A stretch of 30,648 bases of DNA from a virus (taxonomy: Duplodnaviria; Caudoviricetes), in IMG/VR virus record IMGVR_UViG_3300020042_000947, positions 1-30,648 of that record, one strand, 5' to 3'. Below are positions 3-29,805 of the stretch, one piece after another (positions within the stretch are counted from its first letter, which is position 1; each line of letters begins with the position of its first letter). Position numbers and translations under genes: made by a program. Under the pieces are notes generated by a model. That model was not told where the DNA came from, made no database searches, and saw nothing but the letters and a program-made list of their open reading frames with translations.

Positions 3-3000
3 GTGATCCAGCATAAATGCAATTGCGCTTTCACGAGAAGTCTTAGTCTCTTTGCTATCGCGGCCCCACAGATCATTCAAACCAATACGGGAACCAATGT
101 CGTAGCCAGTGATTGCGTTCAGTGGGCCACGGTCAACAATGTCGCTTACAGGTACGCCGCCGATCGTGACGTCACCCAACTTCTCAGGCAAGAACACAGT
201 GCGGAACCAAGTCTCAAAATCAAGGCCTTTAAGTTCTTCAGGCCAATCATCGTCAAGCCCTAACTGACCCCAAGCCCAACCCATTAGCCCCATGATAGGG
301 CTGAACAAAGCCATGTTTGCCGCACCAGCAAGAAGGAAAGAAGTGCCTGCCATACCAAAGAACTTAGTAGCTGCTTCTTTTTTGCCCTCTTTATTAAGGA
401 AGGGGAGCATCTTCTTAAAGTTAGTTAACAACAGCAGAGACATCTGCAGTGGATACGTCTTAAACTGGAACGCAATCTTACCGATACCCTGTTGCATAAA
501 GCGTGGGCGATTAGTAATGTCGTAGTTACCAAGCGCTTCGTTAGTAGAGTCAACTGCTTTTTGAACAGCGTCGTCGTAGCTAAGCCCTTGTTTCTTACCC
601 AAGCGATACGCAGCTAGGTACACCGCCTCACGGCTTAAGCGTTCTGTGTTGTGCATCAGAGCGCCGACCATCAAGTTTGCAAGACGCTTACCTTTACCTG
701 CAACACCTTCAAACTGTTCGGTGGACATGCTCTTGTAGCCCCACACCAAAGAGGCATAGGTAGACTCAGACACACCACGGGCTGTCATTTCACTGACGGC
801 CTTGCGCTCATCTTCAGGAATAGATTTGCTGTTAGCAATACTTGGCGCAGTGATAGAAGTTGTGCCGTCCACGTTAGTGCGGAACACACTGTATTGATTG
901 ACCAAGGTGGTCATCTTTGCGAGCTCAGTAGCCGCGCCTGTAGCGTTGTTGTAGTTACCAGCAAGCACGGGCAAGCCAGAAATGAATACGCTAGAAGGCT
1001 GAATCAAAGCCGACGCAGCAGAAGACAAGTACCAGAAATAAGATGCCTTGTTTGCAATTCCAGCAACAGACTCACTCAAAGAGCCATGATCGCCAGACAA
1101 CGCCATGTCAATACGTTTCTCAGCTTCTTGCACAAACGGAGACAACTCTTCGCGCTCAGTAATAGAATCGCGTGCAGACGACATTGATCTGCGGAGTAGC
1201 GGTGCGTACTTCAAGCGTGCCAACTGAATGGATTGCTTAGAAGCAGTAGTTGCAATGTTGCGCTGCAAGTCTGTGCTAAAACCAGCCCGACCTTTACGAT
1301 GCGTAAACTGCCTGCGGAATGATTGCTCTGGCATTGTGGTCAGATAGATTTGATAGATTGCGTCTTTCAAACCTTCTTTAGCCGAGGGGGAGCCCATGTC
1401 TTTGGCATCAATTGCTTCAAAGACTTTTTTAAGCATCTCACTAGAGTTCTGTGATGCGGCGCGTAATGTTTTTAAGTCATTACCCTGCACAAACTCTTGA
1501 CGGAACAATACATCTTCGTAGTCTTCTCCACGTTTTTCAGCCAACTCTTTGGCCTTTGCATTACGCTCTGCACGTGTTTCAAACAAATAGAATATACGTT
1601 GGTCGTCTTTGCCAATTGCCAGCCAGTAGTCGCCACGGCGCACCAATGGGAAGAAGGGCTTGATCCGTGCATCGGCTTCAAAAGTCTTACGCAAGACAGC
1701 CATCAGAGTTTTCTTCTCTTCCGGAGCCATGCCCGGGATGCTATTGATCTGCTCATCTAACAGGTCAGAGTACAACTCAATGATTGACTCGTAGTAGTCC
1801 CGCAACTGCTTGTACATACGCTGACCGACAGGGCCAAGCGCTTTGTAGTCGGCGGCAAGGGTAGTTGTTTTTGGTGCAGGCTTAGCACCCTTTTTAGTTT
1901 TTTTCTCTTTGCGCTCCACCTCTACTTCACGTGCATTTGGATCGGAAGGGTCAACCTCTGCCAACGTAGTAGCGTACACAAAGTCTGAAAACTTCTCGCG
2001 GCTAAGATTAGGGTCTTCTTTAAAACCACGATTAAGTGAACCAATAACTTGCTCGGCACCAGCTAAGAACTGCTGAGACATACCCAGCATACGTTGCAGT
2101 TGTGTGTTTGCTTGATTCAATGCAGGGATGCCAGCATCAGCGGCCCACTTAGCCAAGAAGTCAAACGTAGGTAGGCGTACTGTAGCCTGCAGTTTGGCGT
2201 ACCCTAGATCACTAGTTACGTTAGCTAAAATTTGGCGCACTGCTTTAGGGTCACGCAAATTCTGCATGAACCCAACGTTCTTAGCTTCTTCGCCTTCACG
2301 AGACAGACGCACTTTTTCTTTTGCGATCCTTACTTCTCTAGCCAACTGAAGCGCAGTACGTTTTGCTTTGAGGTCGGCTTCTTCGTCAAACTCAGGGGGA
2401 GTGAACTTACCCTTCTGTTGGAGTGCGCCACCTTTTGTATCAACTGGGGTTAACCTTGTGCCAAGCATCTTGTCGGTAATGTCGACCAGATCGGTAAACG
2501 CAGTAGCGTCACCTTGTTTAACACCAAACAGATCACGGATACTGTCAACAAATCCAGAGAAACCTGTGCCGCGCTTACCCTGCACGCTCATCAAGAACTT
2601 CTGGAACTGAGGGCTAGACATGCCATAAGCTAAGAACTCATGGGGGTCGGAGAACACACCAATAGATACTTTGCCCGTTCTGTCGCGGTCAGTAGTGCCT
2701 TCAATCATTTCTTGCACTTCTGGAGATAGCTCGCCAAACAGCACGCCTTCTTCATACGCTTCTTGCGTACGCTTCATCAGGCTTTCCATCTCACGCATAA
2801 ACTTCTGCAAGCTAGCGTTCTTAAACCCTTTGAATAGACCTGCGTCAATACGACTAGCCGTCGCTGCGTGCAGCAATTCGTGCAACACTGTTATAACGTT
2901 TATACCTTGTTGGTCTCCGAAGCTACTACCACGCACGTATATGGTACGTTCTTTAGATCCGGGTGTATAAACAAACAAACCACGCGCACCGCTTAGCTGA

Positions 3001-6000
3001 GCCGGTACTGGATCGCCCTTCTCAACAACCACAAACTTAACGTTGACTACAAAGTTACGGATGCGTTGAGCCACAAAACGCTGGAACAAATTACCAGTCT
3101 TAATAATGTGCGCAATCGCTTGTGAGCCGTTAGTTAGCCCGCTGAATCCTTTGTCGGCTTTAGCTACTTTTGCTTCAGAAGAACGTAGCTTTTTAGGGAT
3201 GTCCTTGGGGTCAATATCTTCCTCAAGCATCTGCTTGGCACGTTCACGTACCACCTTTGGCGCGGTAGGATCATTTGCAACTTCGCTAATATACATTGCT
3301 GCATTAGCTACACTGTCTTTTCCTACGGGTGAGTTGTACGTTTCAAGCGCCGACTCCAAAGCGTCAAGCTCTACTTTGTCTTCTCGGCTCAGTTCTTCAA
3401 CACCGTCTTTTGACGGAGCTTTAGGTGGTCGGCCTCGCCCCGTAGACTTAAGTGCTGCATCTAGTTTTTCTTGATTCTTAGCAATTAGTGCAGCATCGCC
3501 TTTATCTTTAGACCTTGCCAGATTAACAGCCGCAATAGCTTGCTTTTTATTTGCGTACGTTGCAGTTACTTCACCATCTGTAACGTGGTCAAACCCACCT
3601 TCGGAGTTTTCTGTAACTACGTGGCGTTGCTGAACAGGTGGCCGACCACGTTTACCTTTGCTTAATGCTCCGGCTGGTGGTGCTTCTTGTCCTTCTTGCG
3701 TTGTTTCGATGGTTTCAGAGGTTTGAGAGCCACTAGTAGTTCCTTTTAGTTTATTAACTTCATCATCAAATGCACGATCTGCTGCATCACGTAAAGCTTC
3801 AAAGTCTGGGTCATCTTTTAGCCCTTGCTCTAATAACGTATCTACAACATTTTGGCGGTAGTCATCAACTGCCAAATTAATATCGCCACCGTAATCAGGA
3901 TCATTTGCTTGGTCAAAAGCAGCACGTGCATTAGTTCGGGCAATACCTTCAACTTTTGTTTTATTAGTTTGAAAGGTTTCTGCTCTAGCTTTATCCGCAA
4001 ATTCTTGGTCTTGTGCTTTTTCTAACTTTGCCGTTTCTTCGTAGGAGGGGCGTCGTTGGTTAGGTATATCGCGGATAGCGTTAGCAAAATCTGTATCACC
4101 CGCTTGTTCGTAACGGTCAGCAACACGTTTGATACGAGCGTCAGTGTCGTTGTATGCAGGGGCTGTTGGGTCGTCTTTGATACGCTCGGCGTATGCGGCT
4201 TCAGACGTAGTATCTGTTTTTGGTGGGGTAGATTTTGCAGGGGTAACTATTGTGTTGCTTGCAAATGACGATTTATTATTTCGTTGCGCCACCAATTGCT
4301 CATCAGTGTTTGCAGCCGCTCTAGAAGGCGGAAGTAAAACGGGGTCGTTACCTTCTACACTAGACACAACTGTCCAGCCGCCATCCATACGCACTACTTT
4401 ATATTGCGCGCTTGCCCTTGTAAATAATCTATTACCTTCTAGGTCTGTATCGGTTTCGTCATAGGTGACTGTGTATATTTTACCGGGGGCACTAGCGCCT
4501 TCTTTTGTTTTGGCGCGTAATTCTTCAAAGGGAAGACTTTGTGTTTCTGCTGCGCTTTTCTTATCTAGCTCTTCTTCCGCCGCTAATGCAGCCTGCTGTG
4601 TTCTTTCTCCAGCAGTAGCTCCTGTAGCATCCTGTCCAGTAGAAACCACTCCACTTGTGTCAACTCCAGCAGTTCCTCCGGCGGGGGGTTCTGCACTGGG
4701 CTGTCCAGCCACGCTAACGCTTTCTCCACTTGGAGTACTGATAGGTTCAGCAACATTTGCTGTTCCTCCTGTTTCTGTCTGCGCAAGCTCATCTGCTTGT
4801 GCCTCCTCTCGGGCTAAGTTTTGGGCGTCAATCTTTGCCTGTTGTGGTGGAACTCCAACCGCAATCAGTTCTTGCGTAATCTGTTCAACACGACCTGCAG
4901 GTATCTTAATAGCAGCAGTCTTAGCTTCGGCCTTTAACTCTGCATCGACTTTGCGTGCGGCAATATTTCCAGCGTTTTCTGCGGGTATACCTTGTTGGAT
5001 ATAAACTTTGGTAAGCGCATCAATCCGCTCGGCACGGACTTGTTCAGGAGTTCCAGCAGGTAGCTCACCTTTTTTCTCAGCCGCAAGCTCGGCGTTAATA
5101 GTAGCTTCTTGCTCAGCCATCCGAGCGTCACGCAAGTTAGAGCGTGCTTCAATAGGGGCAGTTACGCCTTCTGCTATGGCTTCAAGTAACACGTCGGCGG
5201 GTTTGTTTTCGCCCGTAGCTGTTTGTGCGGCAAGTTCACCACCCGCACCGCCACCCATTTGTAAGGCAAGCTCTTTACCCCACGCCGCCATCGTAGCTTT
5301 TTTAGCCGCAGTACCAGCAAGTTTGCCTTCGGCAATAAGAGCCTGTGCGGGCTTCAAGAATCTACCAGCCATGCCCATAGACAGAGCATCAAACGCACCA
5401 ATAATCAAACCACGCTTAGCACCTTTTTCTTTGATCTCGTCCATGATCTTGGGGTTAGACAAGGCTCTGGATATTGCGTTTGCGTCCAGCATGTTGACGC
5501 CTTTGTCTTGCAAGACATCAGCCATGACCGAGCCGTATTCAATACCGCCAGAACTAAGACCAGCCGCAGTTGAACGCGCCACAACCCCAGCGGGGCCGAG
5601 CACTAGGGAAGGAACCATGCCGGGCAAAGATACAGCCAAAGATTCCACCAACATCGTAAATGTTGCGCGTGGGTTAGAAGCCAGAGCAGTAATAGCTTCA
5701 CCGTATGTTTCGGAGTTACCAATTTCTTCCATACCCGCACGAATAGCTTGTGATGGGGCTGCGGCGGATCTTTGTTTTGCGTTGCGTGCCAATACACGTC
5801 CGGCAGCATCTGCGTCGGTTACGCCTGTCTGAAATAAATAACTTGTGGCTATGTCCCCTAGGCTTGCGTCTACGCGCTTAAACATATTGCCGGTTGCTTC
5901 GGTGGTGTACTGGTAAGGAGACTCAGTAAATTTAGTTTCGGGCGTAGCTTTAATTTCGCCAGCGGGTTCGGCCCTAGCGCGGGGTGGCGCAGGTGTAGCC

Positions 6001-6467
6001 ATTGGTGCTTGCTGTTTGAAGTAAGGACTACCTCGCTGCTGCCCGTGCTTAATTACGTCTTCAAACTTAACGCCCATGCTTTGAAGAGATTGTTTTAATT
6101 TCTCTTGGTTAGCACCTTCTTCAAGGAGGTTGACGGCATCGTCAAGCATCTCCAACCGATTTTTATATGGAGCGCGTTTAGGTGGCTCAGGTTCTTTTGC
6201 TACTATGGGTGCAGGTTTGGTTTCTTCTGCACTAGTTCCCATTGGCAGACCAACGTTAAACTCACTAGACAACGCAGATGGCGCAGGTTTCTGTGCCACA
6301 GGCGCAGGTTTAGCTACCGGGGTGTCATCTACTAGCCATTCGCTACCTACCAAGTACGCTTTAGCGCCAGCTTTATTTGTAGCTGTTCGGGCAATTGGTT
6401 GCCATTCGCCGCCGACCAAGGCGACACGCTCCCCCGTCTGGGGATTGGTAGCTGTTTGAATTGCCAT
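3..6467 (-). CDS. Giant (>2,150 aa, 3'-truncated by window edge) polyvalent virion/ejection protein with zincin HExxH domain, PLxRFG-like motif and AT-hooks
   Basis: ATG at 6465-6467 gives MAIQTATNPQTGERVALVGGEWQP. Spot translations in the same frame give VLHELLHAAT (HELLH at 2868-2882), SDPHEFLAYGMSSPQFQKFL (~2590-2650), PFFPLVRRGDYWL (~1620-1658) and ...ETKTSRESAIAFMLDH at the edge. The ORF track has no stop-terminated ORF in this frame, consistent with it being open off the window edge. Confidence 0.9.
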   Translation of the reverse strand, partial: MAIQTATNPQTGERVALVGGEWQPIARTATNKAGAKAYLVGSEWLVDDTPVAKPAPVAQKPAPSALSSEFNVGLPMGTSAEETKPAPIVAKEPEPPKRAPYKNRLEMLDDAVNLLEEGANQEKLKQSLQSMGVKFEDVIKHGQQRGSPYFKQQAPMATPAPPRARAEPAGEIKATPETKFTESPYQYTTEATGNMFKRVDASLGDIATSYLFQTGVTDADAAGRVLARNAKQRSAAAPSQAIRAGMEEIGNSETYGEAITALASNPRATFTMLVESLAVSLPGMVPSLVLGPAGVVARSTAAGLSSGGIEYGSVMADVLQDKGVNMLDANAISRALSNPKIMDEIKEKGAKRGLIIGAFDALSMGMAGRFLKPAQALIAEGKLAGTAAKKATMAAWGKELALQMGGGAGGELAAQTATGENKPADVLLEAIAEGVTAPIEARSNLRDARMAEQEATINAELAAEKKGELPAGTPEQVRAERIDALTKVYIQQGIPAENAGNIAARKVDAELKAEAKTAAIKIPAGRVEQITQELIAVGVPPQQAKIDAQNLAREEAQADELAQTETGGTANVAEPISTPSGESVSVAGQPSAEPPAGGTAGVDTSGVVSTGQDATGATAGERTQQAALAAEEELDKKSAAETQSLPFEELRAKTKEGASAPGKIYTVTYDETDTDLEGNRLFTRASAQYKVVRMDGGWTVVSSVEGNDPVLLPPSRAAANTDEQLVAQRNNKSSFASNTIVTPAKSTPPKTDTTSEAAYAERIKDDPTAPAYNDTDARIKRVADRYEQAGDTDFANAIRDIPNQRRPSYEETAKLEKAQDQEFADKARAETFQTNKTKVEGIARTNARAAFDQANDPDYGGDINLAVDDYRQNVVDTLLEQGLKDDPDFEALRDAADRAFDDEVNKLKGTTSGSQTSETIETTQEGQEAPPAGALSKGKRGRPPVQQRHVVTENSEGGFDHVTDGEVTATYANKKQAIAAVNLARSKDKGDAALIAKNQEKLDAALKSTGRGRPPKAPSKDGVEELSREDKVELDALESALETYNSPVGKDSVANAAMYISEVANDPTAPKVVRERAKQMLEEDIDPKDIPKKLRSSEAKVAKADKGFSGLTNGSQAIAHIIKTGNLFQRFVAQRIRNFVVNVKFVVVEKGDPVPAQLSGARGLFVYTPGSKERTIYVRGSSFGDQQGINVITVLHELLHAATASRIDAGLFKGFKNASLQKFMREMESLMKRTQEAYEEGVLFGELSPEVQEMIEGTTDRDRTGKVSIGVFSDPHEFLAYGMSSPQFQKFLMSVQGKRGTGFSGFVDSIRDLFGVKQGDATAFTDLVDITDKMLGTRLTPVDTKGGALQQKGKFTPPEFDEEADLKAKRTALQLAREVRIAKEKVRLSREGEEAKNVGFMQNLRDPKAVRQILANVTSDLGYAKLQATVRLPTFDFLAKWAADAGIPALNQANTQLQRMLGMSQQFLAGAEQVIGSLNRGFKEDPNLSREKFSDFVYATTLAEVDPSDPNAREVEVERKEKKTKKGAKPAPKTTTLAADYKALGPVGQRMYKQLRDYYESIIELYSDLLDEQINSIPGMAPEEKKTLMAVLRKTFEADARIKPFFPLVRRGDYWLAIGKDDQRIFYLFETRAERNAKAKELAEKRGEDYEDVLFRQEFVQGNDLKTLRAASQNSSEMLKKVFEAIDAKDMGSPSAKEGLKDAIYQIYLTTMPEQSFRRQFTHRKGRAGFSTDLQRNIATTASKQSIQLARLKYAPLLRRSMSSARDSITEREELSPFVQEAEKRIDMALSGDHGSLSESVAGIANKASYFWYLSSAASALIQPSSVFISGLPVLAGNYNNATGAATELAKMTTLVNQYSVFRTNVDGTTSITAPSIANSKSIPEDERKAVSEMTARGVSESTYASLVWGYKSMSTEQFEGVAGKGKRLANLMVGALMHNTERLSREAVYLAAYRLGKKQGLSYDDAVQKAVDSTNEALGNYDITNRPRFMQQGIGKIAFQFKTYPLQMSLLLLTNFKKMLPFLNKEGKKEAATKFFGMAGTSFLLAGAANMALFSPIMGLMGWAWGQLGLDDDWPEELKGLDFETWFRTVFLPEKLGDVTIGGVPVSDIVDRGPLNAITGYDIGSRIGLNDLWGRDSKETKTSRESAIAFMLDH
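3662..3733 (-). CDS. Candidate nested out-of-frame 23-aa basic peptide (MALKPLKPSKQRKKDKKHHQPEH)
   Basis: AAAGGA SD (3741-3746), 7-nt spacer, GTG start and TAA stop. It is in the same alternative frame as the nested ORF at 4583-4756. Confidence 0.3.
   Translation of the reverse strand: MALKPLKPSKQRKKDKKHHQPEH
4583..4756 (-). CDS. Candidate nested out-of-frame 57-aa helical protein (MLLNLSVLQVEKALAWLDSPVQNPPPEELLELTQVEWFLLDRMLQELLLEKEHSRLH)
   Basis: Strong SD AGGAGGA (4764-4770) 7 nt before ATG. The product looks amphipathic and helical, while the main frame here is a low-complexity linker. Confidence 0.55.
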   Translation of the reverse strand: MLLNLSVLQVEKALAWLDSPVQNPPPEELLELTQVEWFLLDRMLQELLLEKEHSRLH

Positions 6468-14618: not shown

Positions 14619-15077
14619 TCAATCCAGTAAGGCGCACTCAGCCGTGCGGCGTTTTAACAAGCCCGGCAAAACCTTGCCGCCACCTTTAGTCCAGAGCATC
14701 AGTTGTTCCTTGGCCCCTTCCCAATCATTGGCGTTGATTTTCCTCTTTAACGTGCTTGTTTGCAAGCGCCCAATGCCCAAGTTGTAACAGAAATCTACGA
14801 TGGCGTTTAGCTTCCTTGGATCACCTTGAGCGGCAATCACCAGCAGGTTTGGACAATGCCTTACTGCACCGGGTGCGTAGGTGTGTAGGAGTTCTGTCAT
14901 CAACAGCGCTCTGGCTGTCGGTTCGTCCATCGGAGGGTCTTCCAATGTTACCTTGCGCCCATCGGCGTAGTAGGTGGAACCATACCCGATTGTGGCTACG
15001 TTAGCTGGACACAGGTACGGCTTGGCCCGATAGCCTTCAAACCGGCGGCACAGTTCAGCGGCTAAGTCTAGGTTCAT
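14619..15077 (-). CDS. Endolysin, GH24 phage lysozyme (muramidase), 152 aa
   Basis: FEG...YLCPANVATIGYGST catalytic region (E-x8-C-x5-T), 'AIVDFCYNLG' and 'GGKVLPGLLKRRTAE' are GH24 signatures. Confidence 0.93.
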   Translation of the reverse strand: MNLDLAAELCRRFEGYRAKPYLCPANVATIGYGSTYYADGRKVTLEDPPMDEPTARALLMTELLHTYAPGAVRHCPNLLVIAAQGDPRKLNAIVDFCYNLGIGRLQTSTLKRKINANDWEGAKEQLMLWTKGGGKVLPGLLKRRTAECALLD

Positions 15078-26149: not shown

Positions 26150-26379
26150 CTAAATCCCGCCGTTTTCTTTGCAATTGTTTTTGGTTGCGCTACAAACTGC
26201 TTTCCAGCTTTCTTGCCAGCACGCTTTGCACGTGTTGTAGCGGCATATTCTGATGGTGATAAAGACTTAATAGCTGCTTCGGGCAAGTATCTCTCCCCCG
26301 TCTTACTTGACGGTTTACCAGACTTAGTGCGCCATTTCTGGTCGCCCCAGTCTTTCAGAGACTTTTGCGGAGCTTTCAA
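26146..26379 (-). CDS. Basic protein, 77 aa, resembling the C-terminal half of DUF5872-like proteins
   Basis: 'QKSLKDW..QKWRTKSGK...ERYLP'. The TTG start overlaps the upstream TGA (TTGA). Confidence 0.75.
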   Translation of the reverse strand: MKAPQKSLKDWGDQKWRTKSGKPSSKTGERYLPEAAIKSLSPSEYAATTRAKRAGKKAGKQFVAQPKTIAKKTAGFR

Positions 26380-26651
26380 TCTCTATACCCCCCACCAGAA
26401 GCTTTGTACTTTTTAGCAACAAGCTGAGCCTTGCGTGCTGACCATTGTCCTGCGCCCGTACCTTGTGTAGCTGCAGCTTTTACCTGAGCCACAATCCGCT
26501 TACGCAGACCGGGTTTTGTGTAGTTGCCAGCCGCATTTACTTTGCCGCCTTCAGCATACTGTGTAAAGTCAGTGTCATCCCGACGAGCTTTACGCTTGCC
26601 CTTGGGCATTTTGCTTGGGCTAATATCACCCATTCCACGGGATGCCATCAT
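26376..26651 (-). CDS. Basic protein, 91 aa: N-terminal peptide, YAEGG, then N-terminal half of a DUF5872-like domain
   Basis: 'NYTKPGLRKRI...GQWSARKAQLVAKKYKASGGGY'. Confidence 0.78.
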   Translation of the reverse strand: MMASRGMGDISPSKMPKGKRKARRDDTDFTQYAEGGKVNAAGNYTKPGLRKRIVAQVKAAATQGTGAGQWSARKAQLVAKKYKASGGGYRD

Positions 26652-27163
26652 ACAAACCTACCTCTGGTTTTACCCTTAGTAGCAATGCCGTCAGCGCGTT
26701 TAGAAGCGGAAGACACTTTAGAAGTCATGCCACCAGAAGCTATCTTTTTAATTTTACCGCCACGTTTGAATGCTTCAACACTCACACCTTCTTCATCAAA
26801 TCGTGGTTTACCACTACCGCCACCGCCACCGCCGCTACCACCAGCAAATTGGCCTAAGTCTCCGTATCCGGGAGCAGCAAATTCACCTTCTTCGGAACGT
26901 TTTGCTAATTCACGTTTTGCAAGTGTTGGCCCAAAACCACGCTCGGGAGTGTTGGCTAGCGTTTCTAACACCCGTGCATCAGCCACGCCATACATAGGGT
27001 CGTCAGCCCTACCGCTTGCTGTATCTTTCATAACACGTGCGCGAAGCATATCGTTATAAGCATCTGCTGCCGCCTCTTGTGTAAAGTCGTAGCGTGCTCC
27101 GGGTGTTTGAAATACGTCCGAATTTCGAGCAGTCCGCGAAGGGTAAGGTAGTTTTGTAGCCAT
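26648..27163 (-). CDS. Tagged-array protein, 171 aa (C-terminal SASKRADGIATKGKTRG)
   Basis: Unique N-terminus, poly-Gly linker, then FKRGG..IASGG..SASKRADGIATKGKTRGRFV. Confidence 0.8.
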   Translation of the reverse strand: MATKLPYPSRTARNSDVFQTPGARYDFTQEAAADAYNDMLRARVMKDTASGRADDPMYGVADARVLETLANTPERGFGPTLAKRELAKRSEEGEFAAPGYGDLGQFAGGSGGGGGGSGKPRFDEEGVSVEAFKRGGKIKKIASGGMTSKVSSASKRADGIATKGKTRGRFV

Positions 27164-27166
27164 GAT

Positions 27167-27751
27167 TTAGCACATCTTTCCACGGGTTTTACCCTTAACG
27201 GCAATGCCATCAGCACGGCGGGAGGCGGTCATACCACCAGAAGCCATCTTTGTAACCTTGCCACCACGCTTCATACCATCGCCTTTGTAGTTCTCTTCGC
27301 TGGGCAAACGAGTACCGTCTTCATAGCGACCAGAATACTCTCTGCGGGCTTTTTCGTTAGCGTCAGTTTCACGTCGATAGTTATCAACTTCTTCTTCGTC
27401 TAAACGAGCCTTAGCATCTTTGGACAATTCAACTTTGTCGCGGCGGTTTGCTGCTTTTTCAGCGGCGCTACCAAGGCCAGATTTATCAACCATCTTTTTA
27501 CCGAGACCAGTCTTTTCGTCAATCTTACGGCCAACCCCGTAACCAATTTCAAACATAACTTGACCAGCACCAGCACGGCCAACGTTACGGTTATCCGCAC
27601 GTTTGCCAGCTTCCCGAACGGCTTCTTTAGCGCCGCCAGTAAGCTTAGAAGAGTCTACATTACGGCCTTTTTTGCCTTTTGCAAAGTCTTCTTTAGCCCG
27701 CTCCACGACGTCATCTTTAAGACCGGGTAGGTTGTCCCATCTTGTAGCCAT
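27167..27751 (-). CDS. Tagged-array protein, 194 aa (C-terminal TASRRADGIAVKGKTRG)
   Basis: Unique charged N-terminus, then MKRGG..MASGG.TASRRADGIAVKGKTRGKMC. Confidence 0.8.
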   Translation of the reverse strand: MATRWDNLPGLKDDVVERAKEDFAKGKKGRNVDSSKLTGGAKEAVREAGKRADNRNVGRAGAGQVMFEIGYGVGRKIDEKTGLGKKMVDKSGLGSAAEKAANRRDKVELSKDAKARLDEEEVDNYRRETDANEKARREYSGRYEDGTRLPSEENYKGDGMKRGGKVTKMASGGMTASRRADGIAVKGKTRGKMC

Positions 27752-27753
27752 AG

Positions 27754-28038
27754 TTACACCATCTTTCCACGAGTTTTGCCTTTGGTACAGCAGCCGTCAG
27801 CACGTTTAGAAGCTGAGCCAACTGATCCACCTTTAGCCTTCTTTTCAAACATATCACCCATACTTACGCGTGAAGAAAGGTCATAAGCGGCTTCATTATT
27901 TGCAGCGGCTTTACGATCTGCAACTTCGGCTTTAGCCGCTTCCATCTTTGCACGAGTCTCAGGATATATAACTTCGTTTTGAGACTCAGGCGTGCGCCTA
28001 GGCTTGTATTTTTTAGCTGCTGCTGGTGTCATTGGCAT
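27754..28038 (-). CDS. Tagged-array protein, 94 aa (C-terminal SASKRADGCCTKGKTRG)
   Basis: AAGGA SD; KAKGGSVGSASKRADGCCTKGKTRGKMV. Confidence 0.8.
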   Translation of the reverse strand: MPMTPAAAKKYKPRRTPESQNEVIYPETRAKMEAAKAEVADRKAAANNEAAYDLSSRVSMGDMFEKKAKGGSVGSASKRADGCCTKGKTRGKMV

Positions 28039-28047
28039 GATGTTTCC

Positions 28048-28596
28048 TTAACAGGCTTTGCCGCCCATGTTCATCTTAACCATTTTGCCCTTGGTTTTAC
28101 CCTTAGTGGCAGCGCCGTTAGCAGCAGCGCGGAACGTACCGCCACCAGCCAACTTAGTCATAGGCTGACCTTTGTGCAAACGACCTTCGTGTTTGTTCAC
28201 GGCCTTCTGCATCATGGACTTGTCTTGCTTTATGTCTGCTTTAGCCATGCCGCCTTTTTTCATTGCGCCTTTACCGTCACCAATGAAAGCGGGTTTACCG
28301 TCTTTCATGGGCATAGCGCCGCCGCTGGAATATCCGCCCATGTTCATTTTCTTTGTAGCCATAGTATCACCACCTTCTTTCATGATTGACATCTTGCCAT
28401 GAAGTGTCTTGGGTTTGTTAACTTTTTGAAGGTCGGCACGGGATGTATCTGAGCCCTTACCAAACTTCATACCTTTACTTGCTCCACTAAACTCTTTTGC
28501 AACTGAAACCGGGATGCCAGCCTGTTTTGCAAACGTTGGATTATGAGCCGCTGCATCCATGAATTGCTTTTGCTTTTCACTTTTTGCTGGCATCAT
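28048..28596 (-). CDS. Lys/Met/Gly-rich protein, 182 aa, with multiple xxxGG motifs and a degenerate tag
   Basis: MKEGG, MNMGG, YSSGG, MKKGG, LAGGG..AAANGAATKGKTKGKM, MNMGG. N-terminal 'MPAKSEKQ..FM.AAAHNP.FAK..GIP.SVAKEF' module. Confidence 0.8.
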   Translation of the reverse strand: MMPAKSEKQKQFMDAAAHNPTFAKQAGIPVSVAKEFSGASKGMKFGKGSDTSRADLQKVNKPKTLHGKMSIMKEGGDTMATKKMNMGGYSSGGAMPMKDGKPAFIGDGKGAMKKGGMAKADIKQDKSMMQKAVNKHEGRLHKGQPMTKLAGGGTFRAAANGAATKGKTKGKMVKMNMGGKAC

Positions 28597-28835
28597 CGCC
28601 CCGCTTGAATAAGTTGGTCAATTTTTGCTTCAAGCTTGTTAAAGCGTTGGTCAATGTGGTTCGTAATGCGATCCACTTCTGCTTGAGTAACGTTATCACG
28701 AGCAACCTCCTCACGGGTTTTGTTCAGGAGGATTGTGACACGAGCCAATTCCCTAAACTTTTCATTCATCATGTATCCAAACAATCCCATCACAAGAGTT
28801 AGGATTGCTGACCATGCGGTGTTTAAATCTAGCAC
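28593..28835 (-). CDS. Small membrane-anchored coiled-coil protein, 80 aa
   Basis: N-terminal TM (AWSAILTLVMGLFGYMM) followed by a heptad 'IDQRFNKLEAKIDQL'. GTG start overlaps the upstream gene end. Confidence 0.7.
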   Translation of the reverse strand: MLDLNTAWSAILTLVMGLFGYMMNEKFRELARVTILLNKTREEVARDNVTQAEVDRITNHIDQRFNKLEAKIDQLIQAGR

Positions 28836-29296
28836 ATCCGGCCTTTTGTTTTTCCACGTGAAGCAATACCATCAGCGCGTTTAGAAGCAGAGGACACCTT
28901 GCCACCATCTTTGAGTCTGTCCCATATAAAAGCGTCGCGTCCATAGCTACGTTTTTGAGCGGGGGTCAACGCCCTTATTTGTGCGTCTGTCAGGTCAAAA
29001 TAGTTAGGTTTGTCTTTGGGGGGTTTGGCAACGGTACCCCGACCAGTCGGCTCTACGTACGGGTATTCTGTCTTGTTACCTTCGGTTTTAGCGTTATTCA
29101 ACGCCTCTTCACGACGGGACGCGGCAAGTTCTTTATCTTTTGCCGTTGCCTCTTTTTCGCTTTTAGAACCTTTAGTCGTGTCTATAACTTCACGCTTAAC
29201 ATTACCAGCGCTTCGGCCACCGCCACCACCGCCAGCAGGGGCAGCACCGCCACCGCCTTTTGGTTCGTCATCGTAGTAAGGTGTACTTCTTGCCAT
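28829..29296 (-). CDS. Tagged-array protein, 155 aa (C-terminal SASKRADGIASRGKTKG)
   Basis: Poly-Gly N-terminal linker; LKDGGKVSSASKRADGIASRGKTKGRMC. Confidence 0.8.
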   Translation of the reverse strand: MARSTPYYDDEPKGGGGAAPAGGGGGGRSAGNVKREVIDTTKGSKSEKEATAKDKELAASRREEALNNAKTEGNKTEYPYVEPTGRGTVAKPPKDKPNYFDLTDAQIRALTPAQKRSYGRDAFIWDRLKDGGKVSSASKRADGIASRGKTKGRMC

Positions 29297-29297
29297 A

Positions 29298-29543
29298 TCA
29301 ACACTTCCAAGCTCTAAGTGATTTGTTTATGCGTGAGTCTGGGTCTTTGGCGGTTTTGGGGGATGTCAATTTCTTTTTCATCCCTTCCATCCTCGCACAA
29401 AAAGAGTCGCGCCGGGAGCCGCCTTCTGGCTGGGGAGGTTTCAAGTTCATGCCTTGCTTTTTCGCGGAGGCGCGTCCCTTGGCATTCAAGCCACCCTTGG
29501 GATTCTTGCCTTCTTTCCTCTGCCATGCTGGACTCTTAGCCAT
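29298..29543 (-). CDS. Basic conserved phage protein, 81 aa (DUF6321-like)
   Basis: Likely start ATG at 29543: MAKSPAWQRKEGKNPKGGLNAKGRAS...RRDSFCARM...DPDSRINKSLRAWKC. Confidence 0.8.
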   Translation of the reverse strand: MAKSPAWQRKEGKNPKGGLNAKGRASAKKQGMNLKPPQPEGGSRRDSFCARMEGMKKKLTSPKTAKDPDSRINKSLRAWKC

Positions 29544-29805
29544 AGAACGCCACCGCTGCGCATGTTGCGCCAACAGAAACTACAAGACTTGTTGAACAAA
29601 TAACACCTTCGCCGGGAATCCAAATACTAGACATACCAGCAGCGCCAATTGTGAATGTAAACAACGTAGTTGAACCGTCTTTAATGACAATCGTACTAGC
29701 GCCTGTTGCGCTATACCAAAGACCTTTAAAACGGGTACGCCCTGTATACGCAGTTGTGTCAGTACTTACTGGACACGTTACGCCTTTAACGTCTGTCTGC
29801 ATCAT
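29536..29805 (-). CDS. Small beta-rich virion protein, 89 aa
   Basis: AAGGGG SD; 'MQTDVK...RTRFKG...IPGEGV'; position two genes after the capsid gene. Confidence 0.75.
   Translation of the reverse strand: MMQTDVKGVTCPVSTDTTAYTGRTRFKGLWYSATGASTIVIKDGSTTLFTFTIGAAGMSSIWIPGEGVICSTSLVVSVGATCAAVAFYG

Follow-up and report, generated by a model that had tools for sequence, protein, structure and literature searches.

The question raised by this locus was whether a short stretch inside the gene for a giant, presumably virion-associated protein also encodes a second protein in another reading frame, and, if so, what that protein might do. The window, by which the whole analysed stretch of DNA is meant (30.6 kb, 30,648 nt, from a tailed phage of the Caudoviricetes), carries a late operon. 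An earlier note, prepared from the letters alone, had described a Shine-Dalgarno sequence AGGAGGA, a 7-nt spacer, and an ATG opening a 57-aa out-of-frame ORF within the giant gene. All of these elements were found as described, on the minus strand (which the note had not stated), and both peptides quoted there match the sequence. The coordinates of the features are collected in Table 1.

Table 1. Features of the nested gene and its surroundings in the window
Feature	Position	Strand	Remarks
Giant host gene, at least 2155 aa, runs off the window	3..6467	-	phrog_10089, 1.5e-42; PF18858, 4.9e-10
Two upstream late-operon genes, 509 and 362 aa	6473..9101	-	
Nested gene	4583..4756	-	57 codons, +1 frame of giant ORF 6467..<3; ATG at 4756, TAG ending at 4583
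Shine-Dalgarno sequence of nested gene, AGGAGGA	4764..4770	-	encoded by host-frame Gly (GGA) codons
In-frame upstream extension	4757..4792	-	12 codons; ATG at 4792 gives a 69-aa form
Second nested micro-gene	3662..3733	-	23 codons, Lys-rich, +1 frame, AGGA site, GTG start

The giant protein contains an LPD39 domain (PF18858), a DarB-like/PLxRFG-type C-terminal part and a HELLH motif near residue 1200, and the 362-aa gene, two places upstream, matched a DNA ejection protein family (phrog_4287, 6.9e-10). We infer that the giant protein is an internal-virion or ejection protein, in line with the LPD39 polyvalent proteins of PMC5512222; the phage polyvalent proteins described there combine LPD39 with a zincin-like peptidase, and the giant gene has both an LPD39 match and an HEXXH motif. 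PLxRFG/DarB-like proteins of phages Parlo, SopranoGao, PEp14 and PBC5 showed 25-30% identity to its C-terminal part. These likenesses, which include the position among late virion genes, concern the giant gene only. The HELLH zincin-like motif (approximately residues 1197-1201) lies in a well-conserved domain (approximately residues 1100-1350) that is named by no library. The C-terminal 520 aa of the giant protein were very divergent (L222-L266, L229) despite near-identical neighboring genes, which suggests domain swapping.

To collect relatives, the 57-aa peptide was used as a query, and 20 proteins were obtained from 24 candidates and 80 viral stretches were kept out of 110. In all 80 loci the small ORF and a long ORF overlap with an identical frame offset, and a stop follows directly after codon 57 (at codon 58) in 79 of them. 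In the alignment of 59 distinct sequences (two loci were dropped, one cut and one with an indel), the entropy at the three nested codon positions was 0.75/0.48/1.01, and identity was 67% in the nested frame versus 42% in the host frame. Because this set had been chosen by the peptide itself, sampling was repeated with the C-terminal 466 residues of the giant protein, which gave 47 loci, many of them on contigs already present in the peptide-found set. The +1-frame nested gene was present in 29 of 29 5'-complete giant-gene loci found by the host protein alone and in 5 of the 18 5'-truncated loci; the other 13 truncated loci have at most 877 upstream codons and end short of the site occupied by the nested gene in their nearest relatives. 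For 24 distinct ungapped sequences of this second sample, pN/pS (pairwise, non-independent counts) was 0.18-0.45 in the nested frame versus 1.37-3.07 in the host frame, and the entropy by nested codon position was 0.66/0.51/0.86. The host-frame values above 1 are an effect of the nested constraint and imply no positive selection. When the whole giant gene was compared across 20 relatives, nucleotide identity within the overlap at host positions 1/2/3 was 0.72/0.78/0.85, so that the third position is the best-conserved host-codon position there; elsewhere, host third positions mostly ranged over 0.40-0.64 per bin, apart from a poorly filled bin and the stretch of residues 901-950.

Thus, the comparison of dN/dS in both frames suggested by the earlier note, carried out here as pN/pS, gave low values for the nested frame and high values for the host frame, and its proposal that selection acts on what the nested frame encodes is borne out by pN/pS, codon-position entropy and third-position conservation alike. 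The two contrary patterns that it had named, namely stops or frameshifts in the nested frame of homologs or conservation in the main frame only, were not those found. Its contrast with a featureless main frame held in part: selection acts mainly on the nested frame, but the host frame too is selected, though less strongly, and is kept stop-free and hydrophilic. Random synonymous recoding of the small gene left the host frame open only 6% of the time, and order-promoting residues in the host frame were fewer than in such recodings in 115 of 115 copies. The giant-protein residues under the nested gene (571-629) are rich in Ala, Gly, Ser, Thr and Val. A "conserved" linker in a giant virion protein can therefore be the shadow of another gene.

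The small-protein family was then delimited by a profile search, which listed 150 representatives (50% clustering, E<=0.001, a few partial or spurious ones being kept in the counts) spread from freshwater to marine phages. A copy was detected in 253 of the 268 records scanned, and the 133 distinct copies comprised 116 nested and 17 free ones, a ratio that holds for the sampled loci and comes from sampling biased to nested relatives. In L220 and L221, which were reached via a marine member, the gene is free, has its own AGGAGG and lies between two late genes, and in some marine relatives the free gene sits between two genes at the slot of the upstream neighbors of the giant gene; in L222-L224, close relatives of L220/L221, it is nested. 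A 61-kb, 98%-complete genome (G001) has one copy, which is free, and a giant gene without a copy. Among 31 metagenome loci, 15 copies were nested, 4 were free upstream, 11 were free right after the stop of a long ORF (clearly the giant gene in 10 of these), and 1 was without visible neighbors; six divergent loci were all nested. Nearly all free copies thus occupy one of two sites that lie close to each other in this same late operon. Since free-standing copies exist, the product of the small gene is a protein of its own, and the unannotated small protein postulated in the earlier note is now represented both by one ORF conserved in the 29 5'-complete relatives and by these separate genes.

The initiation signals were also conserved. 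Host Gly codons situated 4-15 nt before the nested ATG were GGA in 77 of 80 cases versus 9.6% elsewhere, the GGA-to-ATG spacing was 7 nt in 62 of 74 ATG-bearing copies, and a GGAG or GAGG preceded the start in all 17 free copies and in 113 of the 116 nested ones; the nested ribosome-binding site is also selected. The main-start ATG was missing in 11 of 79 evaluable loci, most of which have an upstream in-frame Met, and the start of the 69-aa form is likely the real start in the few relatives in which the main ATG is changed to ATA, GCG or CTG. A search for a promoter-like site upstream of the nested gene found none, and the single site found was downstream and at chance level. Sequencing runs gave no sign of expression either way: none labelled as RNA was listed as containing the stretch, one RNA run yielded no contig, and the one unlabelled run that contains it may be the source of the window.

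The length of the ORF alone is unremarkable, since 5.6% of the +1 stop-free runs in these giant genes (n=12,769) reach 57 codons, and the +1 frame of such linkers would naturally be rich in Leu, Gln, Pro and Glu. Both points would suit an ORF that arose by chance, or one maintained indirectly because the host linker or a signal in the DNA or RNA is selected; it is conservation that exceeds chance, and this explanation, to which we assign practically no probability, is refuted by the constant nesting in the 29 relatives, by the pN/pS and codon-position patterns, which follow the nested frame also in the giant-protein-based sample, by third-position conservation, and by the free-standing genes among the 150 listed proteins. 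Alternatively, the +1 segment might be the frameshifted end of a shortened giant protein, as most copies have 7-48 open codons of the +1 frame before the ATG. Against such a product, which we consider very improbable, stand the conserved ribosome-binding site and spacing, the stop codon that immediately precedes the ATG in L028/L114 and L214, the joint displacement of ribosome-binding site and start in L121, L126 and L127, and again the free-standing copies. The 57-codon nested gene is almost certainly real.

The origin of the gene was addressed with trees. In the small-protein tree (56 rows, nested copies thinned at 72% identity), the free copies formed two groups in a marine clade that also holds nested ones, and a single origin of the free copies was not rejected (p-AU 0.65); in quick trees of the giant C-terminal part, downstream-free rows fell in two supported places beside nested rows. 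The root of both kinds of tree is uncertain. Nesting first, with later escape, is the simpler reading and is favored on these trees over the capture of an older free gene; the overprinted origin assumed in the earlier note is accordingly the preferred one, and is unproven, as free copies exist and the root is unfixed. For the giant C-terminal part, cultured relatives exist in which the small protein had no match, and the overlap linker itself does not align with them. Four database proteins (P0086, P0090, P0107, P0127) carry part of the small protein fused to other sequence and may be chimeric assemblies or frameshifts.

Searches outside the family gave no counterpart. A tblastn search of the 57-aa protein (P0002) and two relatives against 50,697 annotated phage records returned no match (one chance row at E=4), P0002 had no significant sequence-family match in Pfam, PHROG or PDB, and 1 of 98 family members touched Phage_TAC_7 (6.6e-5). 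Two members gave no usable match in the ESM Atlas, a viral-locus search from the distant member P0180 found none, and literature searches, judged by titles and abstract openings, listed no description of this small-protein family.

The arrangement is of a known kind. Like the lambda Rz/Rz1 embedded spanins (PMC6139136), the small gene is entirely contained in another gene of a late phage operon, in the +1 frame and with its own start, and has relatives in which the genes are separated, as related spanin architectures do. Unlike Rz1, P0002 is without Cys or a lipoprotein signal and is encoded outside a lysis cassette, within a virion-protein gene of more than 2000 aa. An Rz1-type o-spanin was rejected, since neither Cys nor a hydrophobic leader is present in P0002 or conserved in the family, and the enclosing gene encodes an LPD39 protein of at least 2155 aa and no lysis-cassette i-spanin. 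According to PMC6139136, embedded spanins were not found in one family together with overlapped or separated ones, whereas the 57-aa family has both embedded and separated members. The evidence supports well a small-protein family that is new, in a type of arrangement already known, and that unusually combines embedded and free forms; the same small gene in both states provides a rare natural series in which the direction of overlap evolution is testable. A gene at 14619-15077, about 10 kb from the nested gene, is lysozyme-like, as we presume from its sequence.

An AlphaFold2 model of the 57-aa protein (33 sequences; pLDDT 75, pTM only 0.48) contained helices at residues 7-18, 27-30 and 34-55 and supports the folded helical hairpin read from the peptide in the earlier note. 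The protein is thus predicted to be an acidic helical hairpin. Both long helices open with an L-[ST]-x-x-[QE] pattern, Leu, Trp37 and Glu50 are near-invariant in the family, and the net charge was negative in 93 of 98 members. Foldseek against viral structures gave nothing significant (best E 2.0), nor did a VIA-align fold search (best Z 5.0, rmsd 2.5, 43 aligned).

The C-terminus showed a distinct pattern. P0002 ends in S-R-L-H (Arg55, Leu56, His57), and the family consensus is S/N-x-[LVI]-[HQ]-COOH. Among the 150 listed proteins, the last residue was His in 97 and Gln in 45 (142 H or Q), the second-last was L, V or I in 141, and the fourth-last was S or N in 112; the third-last was mostly P, Q, S or R (Pro in 62, L or I in 9). 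The last codon was CAN in 116 of 116 nested copies, though its A falls on a host position with four-fold degeneracy; Gln was the last residue in 40 of these copies, and His in 17 of 17 free copies. The codon constraint, the conserved tail and the His of the free copies together indicate that the free C-terminus is functional, and the invariant tail offers a direct experimental handle on function.

By analogy, it is tentatively proposed that the small protein docks its free tail on a host protein, with Lon protease as the lead target. The nested gene would be translated from the late mRNA by internal initiation at its own ribosome-binding site, and the resulting acidic hairpin would have a binding role in the cytoplasm through tail and hairpin. 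The free S-x-[LVI]-[HQ] tail would then dock on a host protein, most likely Lon, the small protein, with its terminal His, serving as a substrate or decoy of Lon during the build-up of the large, disorder-rich ejection proteins, and docking would tune either the proteolysis of these ejection proteins or the lifetime of the small protein itself. The host frame at the overlap would be filler that must stay stop-free and hydrophilic.

According to PMC11986505, Lon recognises a C-terminal x-L/I-L/I/V-H, some verified degrons deviate at the third-last position (T, S), and in a Yersinia Lon reporter a His-to-Gln change lengthened the half-life from 152 to 402 min, Gln being no better than Asn, Thr or Phe. 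According to PMC10665427, LarA, a small Lon activator, acts through a helix and a His-ended tail. P0002 has the terminal His (His57) and an L/I/V residue at the second-last position (Leu56), but Arg55 in place of L or I at the third-last. The family resembles the Lon His-end degrons (SulA, Smg, Y2853; PMC11986505) and LarA (PMC10665427) in small size, a C-terminal helix and a short [LVI]-His tail, conserved beyond expectation; it differs in being phage-encoded, in rarely having L or I third-last and in being one third Gln-ended. Since the His-to-Gln change weakened the Yersinia degron and the third-last residue is rarely L or I, the Lon reading is weakened, and the Gln-ending third of the family argues against a plain degron. 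Moreover, the conserved body (W16, W37, E36, E50 and prolines) needs a partner and is not explained by a degron. A fuller version, in which a Lon-regulator family was born by overprinting in a disordered ejection-protein linker, dictated that linker, was later freed in marine phages and uses its tail to shield ejection proteins before packaging, appears improbable; if true, overprinting followed by escape, combined with Lon regulation, would trace a de novo gene through its entire life history.

The evidence on the host, another weak point of the Lon reading, consists of one match among GTDB genomes, to an 18.6-kb contig (L209) of a Polaromonas MAG, which may be a prophage or a mis-binned virus; the 13.9 kb examined resembles phage loci throughout. 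In 221 genes called from 282 kb of the Polaromonas MAG, a small and uninformative sample, [LVI]-His ends were not enriched (seen once versus 1.1 expected), and [LVI]-Gln ends were seen 5 times versus 2.1 expected (p 0.06). Polaromonas Lon itself ends in a His that is shared by all of 29 close relatives.

That His and Gln replace each other as the last residue is more in keeping with a binding pocket for a polar side chain than with the preference of Lon. Together with the acidity of the protein and its conservation from freshwater to marine phages, this would suit an effector made late and directed at the host, which would bind a non-Lon target through its tail and acidic surface (in lysis timing, superinfection block, shut-off or anti-defence). 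However, similarity to known effectors was seen neither by sequence nor by profile and no result names a target, and we hold this possibility to be doubtful.

A role closer to the host gene, as an assembly chaperone or adaptor that keeps ejection proteins soluble or loads them into the head, is in our estimate rather unlikely. Every copy with visible neighbors lies in or beside the ejection-gene block, the gene is kept in all 29 close relatives, and nesting ties synthesis of the small protein to the mRNA of the giant protein. However, the giant genes that carry it differ strongly in their C-terminal parts, with branch lengths of up to 2.1-2.7 changes per site, and the small-protein profile matched none of 10 cultured phages whose giant or structural proteins are distant relatives (including HTVC023P, HTVC027P, CRP-902 and Rollin), a weak argument at such distance; the two points together lean slightly away from a dedicated chaperone. 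The five cultured phages with PLxRFG/DarB-like proteins that were searched (ZX1, Mwe-JY07, 1F273_PE002, Rollin, RHph_TM3_14A) had no match to the profile, and the small genes that follow the ejection genes in the HTVC phages bear no relation to the 57-aa protein. Furthermore, an unrelated basic micro-gene occupies the same linker, so that nesting may merely reflect free coding space.

This second nested micro-gene was present in 37 of 109 host ORFs, and AGGA with a TTG or GTG start was found in all 37 copies. In these motif-picked, and hence biased, copies the entropy by its own codon position was 0.39/0.24/0.84, and selection follows its own frame; the conservation peak at giant-protein residues 901-950 corresponds to the micro-gene. 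The linker of the giant gene looks like a shared coding space for late small genes, and gene-calling programs register a single gene at a place that has at least two and probably three, in a common group of uncultured freshwater and marine podophages. Elsewhere in the window, a run of small basic genes (26376-29573, minus strand) shares a C-terminal repeat motif of the type ASKRADG..KGKT[KR]G.
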